A stretch of DNA of 64,000 nucleotides, taken from the NCBI RefSeq assembly GCF_013167455.1, contig NZ_CP038328.1; one strand, 5' to 3'. Shown piece after piece: positions 58,189-62,246 of this stretch. The notes below the pieces were generated by a model. It had not been told where the DNA came from and did not search any database. It was given only the letters and a program-made list of their open reading frames with translations. The position numbers and the translations under genes were made by a program. Position 1 is the stretch's first letter, and every line of letters begins with the position of its first letter. Source of the DNA: Escherichia coli O157:H7. Lineage in GTDB: Bacteria; Pseudomonadota; Gammaproteobacteria; Enterobacterales; Enterobacteriaceae.

Positions 58189-58411
58189 TGCTGCTACTGC
58201 AGGATGGCGTTCATGCGCCATCCTCTGCTAAAGCGAAATAATGCTACTACCGGTTATTCTTTTCATTAACCGGTGCGTCCTGTAAAAAAGATGCCAACAT
58301 AATTTTCGTAAAACTCATTCGTTAAAAAAGCTAACACTGGGCATTGTTATTCTTTAAACAGTATGAATAGGTCTCAATAATAAATTGTAATGCAGTTTAT
58401 ACTGTAAAGTA

Positions 58412-59518
58412 TTATTCTAATTTCGGAAAGGTAAAGAAAATATTAATGTATCTTATTAATTTATCATATTGTTCTTGGGTGAATGCTGTTTGCACACCTT
58501 CAGGGCAATATTTACCAGTAATAACCAGTTGCCCATTGCTGTGTTGTACCATTAAACCTTCTTTTTCCTTTGGATCTACAAACTTAGAATTATCAAATGT
58601 GAAGATATTTTTTTCCTGTTTTGAGTAAGCAAAGAAATCTCGTGTATAGCTGAAACTATCATTTATTAATGGTGCTAACTTTTTGTCGGTGATATCGATA
58701 AGCTCACCACTTAATTTATTGATGTATTTCATTTGGTTCAATTTTTTCTGCGCTTGTACAATTTGCTTGTAGGTATTTTTAATTTCCTTAGAAGAATTCT
58801 TGAATTTATCATAGCGTTCCTCGGAGGATGCGTATTTGTACCATTCTGTATTTTTTCTCAGAATGTAGTAGCAGGTCTGTATATTTCTTTGATCGCTGTA
58901 AAGTTGACTTTTAATACTTTCCTTACTGCTGGTTTTATAAGGTTTATCAGAGCTGTTTATTTTTGAAATGTATTTTTCTGTCGGTGACTGGACCGTGTTG
59001 TGGATATTTTCTTTTATAACATGTTCATTGATGATGTTAATTGCAGTTTCATATTCATTTAAGTTTATTGTTCTTTGTGAAATAAACCCTTCTTTGCTTT
59101 CGACACTCAAAATACCTTCGTTGTTTTCACCTCGGGTAAAGGTAAGGGTATAGGGTTCATAATCCGCTGCAAATTCATTTTTATACGTTATGACATGTTC
59201 GACAAAATGTCTTATTGGTACGAAACCATAACTGTGAACGTCAATTTTTTGGGTCTTGATACTATCAATTGCATCTGAGGCTTTCGTGAAAAAAGCCAAT
59301 AAATTAGCTATGCTGTCTGTTGAGGTTGATAACCCGTATCTACTTTGAGATATTTTTAGAAACTCATCGCAAAAAAACTCAAGTTTGGCGGTTTGTTGTG
59401 ATTCTTTGTAAATTTCTGTTGGTTGCAATTTATTATTTTGTAAAATATTACAGCGAGATAAGTGAATAGATGTATTTGGCATAAATGATTCCTTGTATTG
59501 TGAGTTAACAAGATACAA
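58412..59518 (-). CDS. hypothetical protein, AT-rich orphan ORF of unknown function
   Basis: 368-codon ORF, strongly AT-rich by eye relative to flanks, Lys/Asn/Ser/Tyr-rich hydrophilic product, no signal peptide or TM segment, no motif I recognise. Confidence 0.6.
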   Translation of the reverse strand: MYLVNSQYKESFMPNTSIHLSRCNILQNNKLQPTEIYKESQQTAKLEFFCDEFLKISQSRYGLSTSTDSIANLLAFFTKASDAIDSIKTQKIDVHSYGFVPIRHFVEHVITYKNEFAADYEPYTLTFTRGENNEGILSVESKEGFISQRTINLNEYETAINIINEHVIKENIHNTVQSPTEKYISKINSSDKPYKTSSKESIKSQLYSDQRNIQTCYYILRKNTEWYKYASSEERYDKFKNSSKEIKNTYKQIVQAQKKLNQMKYINKLSGELIDITDKKLAPLINDSFSYTRDFFAYSKQEKNIFTFDNSKFVDPKEKEGLMVQHSNGQLVITGKYCPEGVQTAFTQEQYDKLIRYINIFFTFPKLE

Positions 59519-59945
59519 TTTAATCTTTGCAGAATATATTCACTATCAAATTTAGCTCATTTTATTACGAAGACCTTTACGCATGTTAGAAAGTATCATT
59601 ATTGTTAATAAATACGGTAATAAGTAACAAACAGATATTGATAACTTCCCTGACAAGTTATTAGGTATCCCACTTGAAGATTGAGAATGGCTCCAGAGTA
59701 AACTGTGTACTGTTCGCCGGAGTGTCATTACTCTCAACAATCGGTTTTGACAGTGAGTCGGGCGCTTCATACCGGTTTCTACCTGGAGTCATTGTCACTT
59801 CTCCCAACTGGATAAATATATCGCCAATTCACAAAGTGGGCCAAAATCAGGTGAAAACGAATTATTACGCCTGGTAAAGGCTATAGTACAACTAAGTGTG
59901 GCGAATCAGGCAGTCTTGCATTTGTCATCAATCTCATGTCTTACA

Positions 59946-60824
59946 TCAAATTTTTCCACTCACCACTAGTTGTTCCGTACACATTTGTAGTAAAAACAGT
60001 GGACTGCCTTCTACCGGCTTTTCTTTAGCCAGCAACGAAATCTGTCGATAGAAGGTTGGTTCGAGAGGAACGGAACACAATTCATCTGCAATGGTTTTCA
60101 GCGTTAACTCTGGTAATAAGGCGATGCCTAATCCCTGTCGAATAAAACTGATCGCTGTATCCGGGTGATTAAATTCATATTTTATCTGTGGGGTAATATT
60201 CTTTTCTTTAAATAGTGCCATAATGCTTAATTCATAGCGTCCTTTACTAATGATTAATGGTTCACCCATTAATTCTTCCACTGTAATAGTGCTGTTTTTT
60301 GCCAGAGCATGGTTGGGCGGTAACACTACGGTGAATTTATCCTGATAAATGGGCACGGAGTACATTCCGCTCACCGGAAAATGAACAAAACCGGCATCAA
60401 TGGATTCATTCTGAAGCGAATCAATAATCGCTGTGCTATTTTCCTCAAAAGGAATAATTTTTATATTCGGATGATGAATTTCAAAGTAGCGAATCACAAC
60501 CGGTAAGATACAGGCGCAGACGCTGGGGAAACAACCAAGTCTCAGCGTTCTTTGAGGGTTCTGCTTTTCCTGCTCGGCTATCTCTTTTACTGCGTTAACT
60601 TCCCGATTAATGGCGCGCAGATGTTGCACAATGCGGTGACCTGCTGTGGTCAGTTGTATAGCTTTACGGCGATCGCGTAACAGTATATTCACACCAAGTT
60701 CTTGTTCGAGGGCAGCAATTGCCTGACTTACCGCCGACTGCGTCATGAACAATCGCTTGCTGGCTTCAGTAAAGCCACCGTAATCCAGCACGGCGAGTAA
60801 AGAATTTATTTGGGTAAGAGTCAT
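59946..60824 (-). CDS. LysR-family transcriptional regulator
   Basis: 292-aa ORF with LysR HTH (GGFTEASKRLFMTQSAVSQAIAALE) and substrate-binding domain; divergent from MFS gene. Confidence 0.85.
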   Translation of the reverse strand: MTLTQINSLLAVLDYGGFTEASKRLFMTQSAVSQAIAALEQELGVNILLRDRRKAIQLTTAGHRIVQHLRAINREVNAVKEIAEQEKQNPQRTLRLGCFPSVCACILPVVIRYFEIHHPNIKIIPFEENSTAIIDSLQNESIDAGFVHFPVSGMYSVPIYQDKFTVVLPPNHALAKNSTITVEELMGEPLIISKGRYELSIMALFKEKNITPQIKYEFNHPDTAISFIRQGLGIALLPELTLKTIADELCSVPLEPTFYRQISLLAKEKPVEGSPLFLLQMCTEQLVVSGKI

Positions 60825-60975
60825 TAGAGTTTGCTAATCAATAATATTAAAACGATTAATTTCTCTAATAGCATGCCGCCATTTATACTTCTGTTCTGCA
60901 AAGTACATCACAATTTGACGCAACCGCAGTAACGGGAGTGTTGTCTGCGTGCGTCATCCTGACAGGCGGTAGAGT

Positions 60976-62166
60976 ATGAAAGAGAAGTTATGGACGAAGG
61001 ATTTTTGGGCAATAACCATCATCAGCTTTATTATTTTCTTCGTCTTTTATGTTTTACTAACATTGTTGCCAATTTATATCTCTGACCGCTTGCATGCCTC
61101 TCCTGATAAAGCAGGTTTGTTGGTGACTTTATTTTTAATTGCGGCGATTGTTATTCGACCCTTTGCCGGGCAATGGGTGGGTAAATATTCGAATAAAACT
61201 ATTCTGGTGCTCTCTTCTCTGGCCTTTTTGGTGGTCACTGCGCTGTATCCTTTTTGCCACTCAATAGAATCACTGCTTTTTATTAGGGTGCTTCATGGTA
61301 TTACCTTCGGGGTTATCACAACGGTAAAGGGAACGATTTCCGCGCGGCTGATCCCGGCCTCCCGACGTGGGGAGGGCATCAGTTTTTTCTCTCTGGCAAT
61401 GGGGCTGGCAATGGTGGTCGGGCCGTGGATTGGCCTGAATATGGCGCGCTGGGAGGCCTTTAATATGGCTTTCTGGTTATGTACTGGCGTTGCGGCGGTG
61501 GGGATTATCCTGTCGCTGATTATGACCGTGCCGCCGGTTATCAGCCATGCCGACGGTTCAAAGCCAAAGATGGGCTTCGCCGCCATGTTCGATCGCGCGG
61601 CATTGCCGTTTGCCATGGTTACATTCTTTATGACCTTTTCGTATGCCGGGGTTTCTGCCTTTCTGGCGCTTTACGCCCGCGAACTTAATCTGATGTCGGC
61701 GGCCAGTAATTTCCTGCTCTGCTACGCCATCTTCCTGATGATCTGCCGTACCTTCACCGGCAATGTTTGCGACAAAAAAGGCCCGAAATATGTGGTTTAC
61801 CCCTGCCTGCTGTTCTTTACGGTTGGGCTGGTGGTTCTCGGCTACACCCAGGGCAGCGTAATGATGGTCGTTTCTGGCGCGTTGATTGGTATCGGGTATG
61901 GTTCCGTGACGCCAGTTTTTCAGACGCAGATTATCAGTTCAGTGGAACCGCATAAAATCGGTGTCGCAAACTCCCTCTTCTTCAATGCGATGGATGCAGG
62001 CCTGGCGCTGGGAGCCTGTGTGATGGGGATGATGGTTGCACATACTGGCTACCGAATGATTTATCTGCTGGGCGCACTATTAGTGGTAGTGGCTGGTGGA
62101 GTCTATGCGCTGCAAATGAAGGGAAAAAGCGGTGTCGCGCTAGTAGTGGCAAAAGAAATTCATTAA
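60976..62166 (+). CDS. MFS-family transporter
   Basis: 396-aa ORF with ~12 hydrophobic segments typical of major facilitator superfamily. Confidence 0.85.
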   Translation: MKEKLWTKDFWAITIISFIIFFVFYVLLTLLPIYISDRLHASPDKAGLLVTLFLIAAIVIRPFAGQWVGKYSNKTILVLSSLAFLVVTALYPFCHSIESLLFIRVLHGITFGVITTVKGTISARLIPASRRGEGISFFSLAMGLAMVVGPWIGLNMARWEAFNMAFWLCTGVAAVGIILSLIMTVPPVISHADGSKPKMGFAAMFDRAALPFAMVTFFMTFSYAGVSAFLALYARELNLMSAASNFLLCYAIFLMICRTFTGNVCDKKGPKYVVYPCLLFFTVGLVVLGYTQGSVMMVVSGALIGIGYGSVTPVFQTQIISSVEPHKIGVANSLFFNAMDAGLALGACVMGMMVAHTGYRMIYLLGALLVVVAGGVYALQMKGKSGVALVVAKEIH

Positions 62167-62246
62167 TACGACACGTTTCATTAAGATTTTTCGCAGGTAA
62201 CCACCTATAGTCATTGTCGTTAATAAAAAATGACAGGCGATAGGGT

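Follow-up and report, generated by a model that had tools for sequence, protein, structure and literature searches.

O-island 97 of Escherichia coli O157:H7 has been listed since the genomes of EDL933 and K-12 were compared, and its two genes, Z3495 and Z3494, have since been studied experimentally. Wang et al. (Microorganisms 2024;12:140; PMC10819331) annotated Z3495 as a LysR-type regulator and Z3494 as an MFS_YfcJ-like transporter of the major facilitator superfamily (MFS). Deletion of O-island 97 or of z3495 lowered adherence to HeLa cells, transcription of the LEE (locus of enterocyte effacement) and colonisation of the mouse colon, and deletion of z3494 had no such effect (PMC10819331). 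Z3495 is reported to raise rcsF expression and to activate the LEE through rcsF: it shifts an rcsF promoter fragment and does not bind LEE promoters (PMC10819331). The authors call Z3495 laterally acquired and, from its occurrence in two E. coli clades, infer independent acquisition (PMC10819331). Here we analyse the same pair of genes in a stretch of 64,000 nucleotides from E. coli O157:H7 (contig NZ_CP038328.1 of assembly GCF_013167455.1; hereafter the window), where it lies between glpQ and inaA next to an AT-rich orphan open reading frame (ORF). The locus very probably combines two unrelated features, an ancestral LysR-MFS pair and a separate AT-rich insertion.

The core of the locus is thus already known and mostly ordinary. 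What the present analysis adds are the exact breakpoints, the allele frequencies, a correction of polarity and a predicted operator. The published study describes the same DNA and its domain descriptions agree with ours, but it reads the pair as a lateral acquisition, whereas synteny and the K-12 scar point to ancestral presence followed by loss. The adjacent orphan, the regulator's own operator and the regulation of the transporter are not treated in that paper (PMC10819331).

Polarity of the differences from K-12

Three published 40-nt lambda-Red homology arms (Table S3 of the O-island 97 study) each match the window once with 0 mismatches, at positions 59906-59945 and 60823-60862 (z3495 deletion) and at 62060-62099 (MFS side). 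Because these arms match exactly, the regulator (292 aa; 59946..60824, minus strand) is Z3495 and the transporter (396 aa; 60976..62166, plus strand) is Z3494, and the LysR-MFS pair is the known O-island 97 of EDL933. Its absence from K-12 at the corresponding site was confirmed in strain BW25113. An earlier note on this DNA had described an intact LysR regulator, a divergent MFS transporter and an AT-rich orphan ORF between glpQ and inaA, and all three ORFs are found there.

The glpQ-inaA interval of BW25113 measures 462 bp and contains a 243-bp LysR fragment and a 105-bp fragment of the MFS 3' end; the NCBI Prokaryotic Genome Annotation Pipeline (PGAP) marks in it a LysR fragment without N-terminus and a small hypothetical-protein fragment. 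The interval differs from the window in two places. One is the absence of positions 58224-59936, with the hairpin GGATGGCGTTCATGCGCCATCC running directly into the stop region of LysR. The other is a gap of 1,879 bp between two copies of the 8-bp repeat TTTATCTG; these copies form the K-12 deletion breakpoints within LysR (left copy, 60181..60188) and within the MFS gene (right copy, 62060..62067). BW25113 lacks window positions 60189-62059 plus one repeat copy, and the deletion junction reads ...ACATTTTATCTGCTGGGCGCAC. In this one deletion LysR lost its N-terminal 225 codons and the MFS gene 1,084 bp, together with the promoter region; what is left is the final third of LysR and, of the MFS gene, the final 107 bp.

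The NCBIfam model PRK09729 (68 aa), which we take to be K-12 YfaH, matches residues 226-292 of LysR with 145 bits (cutoff 139). By this alignment yfaH is the C-terminal remnant of the LysR gene at the same site: a pseudogene in K-12, but a full-length gene of 292 codons in the window. The BW25113 interval and the PRK09729 match agree with the statement of the earlier note that K-12 has only a yfaH remnant here. As its junction indicates, K-12 lost the pair through one microhomology-mediated deletion and represents the derived state at the site.

The other difference has the opposite polarity. The hairpin GGATGGCGTTCATGCGCCATCC (58202..58223) lies directly 3' of the glpQ stop and is probably a shared bidirectional terminator. 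In K-12, ET625, Escherichia sp. E1V33 and E. whittamii it is followed immediately by TGTCT(C/T)AC(A/T)TCA, which contains the LysR stop, and in this ancestral layout it was probably the terminator common to glpQ and LysR. Because outgroup Escherichia and E. coli without the orphan have the same hairpin-to-LysR junction, we identify the AT-rich segment 58224..59936 (1,713 bp; boundaries ±1 nt from BLAST boundaries and reading of the junctions) as an insertion that arose within Escherichia and now separates the glpQ hairpin from the LysR stop. The segment has the features of a horizontally acquired islet, namely an identical empty site in outgroups and a GC content of 27-36% over most of its length (about 31% overall) against ~50% in the flanks.

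A repeat scan of the segment revealed neither a target duplication nor terminal inverted repeats, and the segment has no mobility genes. Positions 58179-58203, which comprise the glpQ end and the start of the hairpin, are imperfectly repeated at 58229-58253 (25 nt, 76%); this repeat at the left edge of the segment may be due to chance or may be a trace of its arrival. No donor was identified: tblastn gave no phage or genuine plasmid match, and no homologue was found outside Escherichia. The single 'plasmid' match for the orphan proved to be a 4.9 Mb chromosome filed as a plasmid. One 3.5 kb contig (locus L038) labelled as a Collinsella metagenome-assembled genome (MAG) carries the orphan with 93% and LysR with 99% identity to E. 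coli, and is almost certainly a mis-binned E. coli contig.

The alleles of the site were counted in 5,426 complete E. coli genomes, LysR at megablast sensitivity. The MFS gene is full length in 1,227 and LysR in 1,118 of them, and the K-12-type scar with identical breakpoints (LysR query 1-247, MFS query 1085-1191) is present in about 3,139. The orphan ORF occurs in 1,052 genomes, together with the intact pair in 710 and, by subtraction, with the scar in about 340; about 517 genomes, again by subtraction, carry the intact pair without the orphan. The site is thus strain-variable, as had been proposed, and K-12 and most strains do not share an identical block, at least 80% of the region being covered in only 710 genomes. 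The proposal of a single accessory block of ~4 kb did not hold: the locus records two independent events of opposite polarity, loss of the pair in K-12 and insertion of the orphan segment. The orphan is found alongside both the intact pair and the scar. A third, 'null' allele is found in 1,057 genomes, 1,052 of which have it with at least 99% identity, making it nearly clonal. In this allele, in which the pair is lost altogether, for example in E. coli N63, 103 unrelated bases replace the interval from the glpQ stop to window position 62148, and these 103 bp have no match to any other sequence fetched.

The ancestry of the pair was traced by searching a single genome of each species for MFS relatives and mapping the neighbouring genes. 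The order glpT/glpQ - LysR(-) - MFS(+) - yfaE - nrdB was found in Salmonella enterica subsp. arizonae and diarizonae, in several Citrobacter species, in Superficieibacter (directly after glpT) and Pluralibacter, and in E. whittamii and Escherichia sp. E1V33. Kluyvera, Klebsiella spallanzanii, Phytobacter and a Pseudocitrobacter MAG share LysR(-) - MFS(+) - yfaE - nrdB, with glpQ/glpT not detected nearby, and from Leminorella the LysR-MFS pair alone was recovered. Across genera, the orthologues are 80-92% (MFS) and 61-93% (LysR) identical at the protein level. Of the nine MFS gene sequences compared, three are E. coli alleles and six come from other species, and every one has 396 codons. The ratio of nonsynonymous to synonymous substitution rates (dN/dS) is 0.01-0.08 for the MFS gene among these nine sequences and 0.05-0.20 for LysR between E. 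coli alleles, values indicative of strong purifying selection on the pair. Because synteny is conserved across genera and most E. coli carry a scar with two gene ends, the pair is, on the comparative evidence, ancestral in Enterobacteriaceae; its presence is the ancestral state and its absence a loss.

At the same site, E. coli 23CRST031 has a mosaic sequence. Identity to O157 is only ~76% through LysR, the control region and the MFS gene's first ~153 nt, and rises to 99-100% in the remainder, from ~61130 to ~62630. All 26 differences in the start of the MFS gene are synonymous, and the MFS protein is identical to that of O157. The mosaic indicates that homologous imports by recombination do occur here.

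It is highly unlikely that the pair is instead a true accessory island, brought by lateral transfer into the O157/O55 lineage and, in a separate event, into some lineages of extraintestinal pathogenic E. coli. The patchy distribution on which such a view can draw, with an intact pair in only 1,118-1,227 of the 5,426 genomes, and the independent acquisition that Wang et al. deduced from two clades (PMC10819331), have to be set against the scar: ~58% of E. coli bear it at the exact site with both gene ends, and the ancestors of these strains therefore had the pair. Imports such as that in 23CRST031 would also fit acquisition, but the pair lacks mobility genes and target duplications, and its position, orientation and neighbours are identical across many genera; with synteny kept in more than ten genera, it does not have the character of a horizontally acquired islet. 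Similarly, the GC content of LysR (about 41%) is lower than that of the flanks, but the divergence of the MFS protein from its Salmonella and Citrobacter orthologues (84-87% aa identity) is in the same range as that of glpQ (88-90%). The regulator called 'laterally acquired' is, on the reading preferred here, an ancestral Enterobacteriaceae gene that was lost in K-12-type and other lineages. Since the pair is ancestral, an old chromosomal LysR-transporter module would have been co-opted into LEE control rather than imported.

The regulator, its predicted operator and the transporter

LysR-type transcriptional regulators (LTTRs) typically bind near -65 (recognition site) and near -35 (activation sites), and their sites follow a T-N11-A rule. 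The window protein aligns from residue 1 to ~270 with many NCBIfam LTTR models and has LTTR architecture, with an N-terminal HTH_1 and a C-terminal substrate-binding domain; PF00126 and PF03466 are recorded on two frameshift fragments of an E. coli allele of the gene (locus L009). All named LTTR equivalogs, including GltC, CidR, AlsR, CynR, HcaR and OxyR, scored below their NCBIfam cutoffs, the best score being 129 bits for GltC (cutoff 350); CynR, for example, reached 119 bits (cutoff 277). Because all scores are far below the cutoffs, the regulator belongs to no named LTTR family, GltC, CidR, AlsR and CynR being its best-scoring relatives.

The divergent region between the LysR and MFS genes is 151 bp long. 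An alignment of this region from 18 species revealed a conserved block (60823..60869) of three T-N11-A-type dyads: ATTAG-N6-CTAAT at 60823-60838, which overlaps the LysR start codon, ATTAA-N5-TTAAT at 60846-60860, and ATTA-N7-TAAT at 60855-60869. From Leminorella to Escherichia the dyads are near-invariant, whereas the surrounding spacer is not, and the first two dyads each occur once in the window. A candidate -10 hexamer of the MFS promoter, TATACT (60884..60889, plus strand), is conserved across genera as TATACT, TATAAT or TATTA. If transcription starts ~7 nt after this hexamer, the dyad centres lie near -65, -43 and -34.

In these respects the locus resembles classical divergent LTTR-target pairs, with which it shares a full-length LTTR, a divergent gene and dyads at the expected distances. 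Z3495 most likely binds the three predicted dyads, with recognition near -65 and activation near -43 and -34. It would then repress its own gene and activate the transporter when a small-molecule co-inducer is present.

Two observations weigh against this assignment. The rcsF promoter fragment of K-12 contains none of the dyads; either the dyads would not be the sole recognition sequence, or binding at rcsF would be non-canonical. Furthermore, the published table of Z3495 peaks from chromatin immunoprecipitation sequencing (ChIP-seq; Table S4), in which enrichments reach only log2 1.18-1.80, has no row labelled rcsF or z3494/z3495 (PMC10819331). The coordinates of this table fit K-12 numbering (clcA at ~175 kb, glpQ at ~2.351 Mb), and the z3494/z3495 locus may be missing from the K-12-like reference used. 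If the reads were mapped to such a reference, the predicted operator at 60823-60869 was invisible to the published ChIP analysis.

Downstream of the candidate MFS promoter and ahead of the start codon, all genera share an invariant ATCACA (60907-60912) and a conserved GCG(T/C)GCG block (~60947-60955). RNAalifold predicted no conserved RNA structure in the MFS 5' region (energy -0.15 kcal/mol).

The transporter is a member of MFS_1 (PF07690), as precomputed on orthologues that are 84-91% identical, and NCBIfam MFS models align to residues 10-381. Models of YfcJ/YhhS-type transporters and of the staphylopine exporter CntE align over nearly the full length (residues 10-379 of 396) and share the MFS_1 topology, but score only 112 (PRK05122, 111.9), 85 (PRK12382, 85.4) and 75 bits against cutoffs of 374, 364 and 235, respectively. 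Z3494 is thus related to the YfcJ/YhhS subfamily (PRK05122/PRK12382) without being a member, and forms a separate orthologous group. We propose a 12-helix MFS transporter that is probably an exporter; export of a small polar compound is our best guess, made with low certainty. A point against this assignment is that the preference for efflux over uptake comes only from the weak, below-cutoff similarity to YfcJ/YhhS and CntE.

MFS homologues with 55% identity were seen in Desulfosporosinus and a Bacillus species, and a divergent LysR-MFS pair with ~35% identity in Neobacillus. These matches suggest an old module or a cross-phylum transfer.

The orphan ORF

The inserted segment contains a single ORF of 356 aa (58412..59482, minus strand; WP_001301786.1, 'hypothetical protein'), counted from the ATG used by PGAP; an upstream TTG at 59518 would give 368 aa. 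Between the LysR stop and the orphan start lies a non-coding spacer of ~450 nt (59483..59936, minus strand) with small indels between alleles, and the orphan adjoins glpQ in every contig examined. The EDL933 locus tag and O-island number of the orphan could not be confirmed. Literature searches for 'yfaH', STM2280/STM2281 and OI-98 gave nothing informative, and Z3496 had no occurrences.

Homologues were found only in Escherichia, as copies of the gene with 79-99% identity or as fragments of it, in a search of 5.8 billion proteins by word index and 1.84 billion representatives by full HMM. The protein has no match in NCBIfam, PHROGs or PADLOC; Pfam gave only noise (E about 0.2), and a profile search of the PDB reached E 0.22. 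In PADLOC 2.0 the orphan matched 0 defence families, and LysR and the MFS protein gave only chance-level matches (E >0.006). Two candidates from these searches were rejected: a cadherin-repeat protein (P0035), in which six matches to a 39-residue motif amount to a short-motif coincidence, and P0036, which looks like a garbled copy of the orphan gene itself. An Rfam scan returned only a spurious match to an insect long non-coding RNA, below threshold, and consensus scans for promoters and terminators found fewer sites than in shuffled controls.

Four full-length alleles of the orphan differ by up to 17% at the protein level, and all have 356 codons. Stop-creating changes make up 5.7% of the possible single-base changes, and 0 were seen in ~80 substitutions, for which a rough estimate gives a chance of 0.943^80, or ~0.01. 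In the O157 allele a -1/+1 frameshift compensates itself: of two A-runs, at window positions 58851 and 58885, 34 nt apart, one is a base shorter and the other a base longer. Over ~10 codons (~199-210) the reading is IQTCYYILR in place of Y(T/A/I)DLLLHSE, after which the original frame resumes. For this allele, dN/dS was computed without codons 198-213. In the C-terminal third dN/dS is 0.30-0.44 in five of six comparisons (0.89 in the remaining pair), and the central residues ~155-210 are hypervariable. Apart from the compensated pair and a frameshift in the Clade-I strain TW10509, most indels in an alignment of five sequences are located in the insert's 640 non-coding bases. The largest orphan protein clusters are full length, and truncated clusters have hundreds of members.

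By these alignments the ORF is open in most carriers and often disrupted, and selection on it is weak. Because the frame is open, was restored in O157 and shows lower dN/dS at its C-terminus, some selection appears to act on it. Our best guess is that the gene came in horizontally, is under weak selection and is decaying in several lineages. Three findings weigh against a role as a gene. Over the whole gene dN/dS is 0.45-0.76, with substitutions nearly even over codon positions, and is thus near neutral; copies that are split by IS1 or truncated are common; and an AlphaFold2 model from a 9-sequence alignment was uninformative, with a predicted local distance difference test score (pLDDT) of 40.9 and a predicted template modelling score (pTM) of 0.25. 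In one group of genomes, for example E. coli C21, IS1A lies in the orphan at ~58709-58724 together with the K-12-type LysR/MFS deletion.

The same findings give some plausibility to the view that the ORF is not functional, being either a decaying remnant or a chance frame in horizontally acquired AT-rich DNA, a view that would leave the whole segment without function and that we consider possible but doubtful. Besides the near-neutral dN/dS, the hypervariable middle and the frameshifted stretch fit such decay, as do the frequent disruptions (IS1, truncated clusters, the TW10509 frameshift), the low AlphaFold confidence and the failure to find a homologue or domain. A chance frame of 356 codons in DNA of 30% GC would, however, hardly stay free of stops through alleles that are 17% divergent. 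The -1/+1 pair restores the C-terminal frame, whose dN/dS is mostly 0.30-0.44, and both the concentration of indels in non-coding bases and the full length of the largest clusters are at odds with a sequence devoid of function.

A more specific proposal starts from the position of the orphan. The insertion would have split LysR from the hairpin that it had in common with glpQ and placed the orphan downstream on the same strand. Because of this shared strand, and because the minus strand has no predicted intrinsic terminator between LysR and the orphan (59483..59936), the orphan may be read through from the LysR promoter. The orphan could then be a functional Escherichia-specific gene, distal on the LysR transcript and co-expressed with a LEE-linked regulator, that supplies a new function in defence, envelope or host interaction. 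If true, it would add a new function in roughly 19% of E. coli. We regard this as improbable; it is a point against it that read-through is deduced solely from the absence of a consensus terminator.

We likewise give little credence to an undescribed single-gene function typical of small AT-rich islets, be it defence against phages, toxicity or a secreted product that acts on the host. In favour of it are the low GC of this single gene in a variable spot between core genes, the allelic diversification of its central region and an ORF maintained across lineages. Against it, the orphan has no PADLOC, PHROG, Pfam or PDB match and no partner genes, is weakly constrained, and occurs in many pathotypes with or without the LEE (judged from strain names only). 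As carriers include strains with and without the LEE, a role as LEE effector is not suggested.

In its low GC, restriction to one genus, lack of homologues, weak constraint and frequent pseudogenisation, the orphan is like other ORFan genes in AT-rich E. coli islets. This category is a description and not a family, and no function follows from it for the orphan. The orphan is a clean case of a genus-restricted, weakly constrained ORF whose insertion site is exactly defined; nothing yet suggests that it is important.

Flanking genes

The left flank is formed by the conserved core gene glpQ (57112..58188, plus strand), which is annotated as such in every genome fetched, and the right flank by inaA (62247..62897, plus strand). 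Several O157:H7 chromosomes match window positions 57600-62900 with 100% identity. Between the E. coli alleles compared, dN/dS for glpQ and inaA is 0.02-0.15. The GC content of the flanking genes and the remainder is ~50-58%, and that of LysR ~40-46%.

Only Escherichia and the Pseudocitrobacter MAG have inaA between the MFS gene and yfaE; yfaE is found within ~10 bp of the MFS stop in Salmonella, Citrobacter, Kluyvera and most others. Since inaA is found at this position only in those genera, it looks like a lineage-specific arrival at the site.

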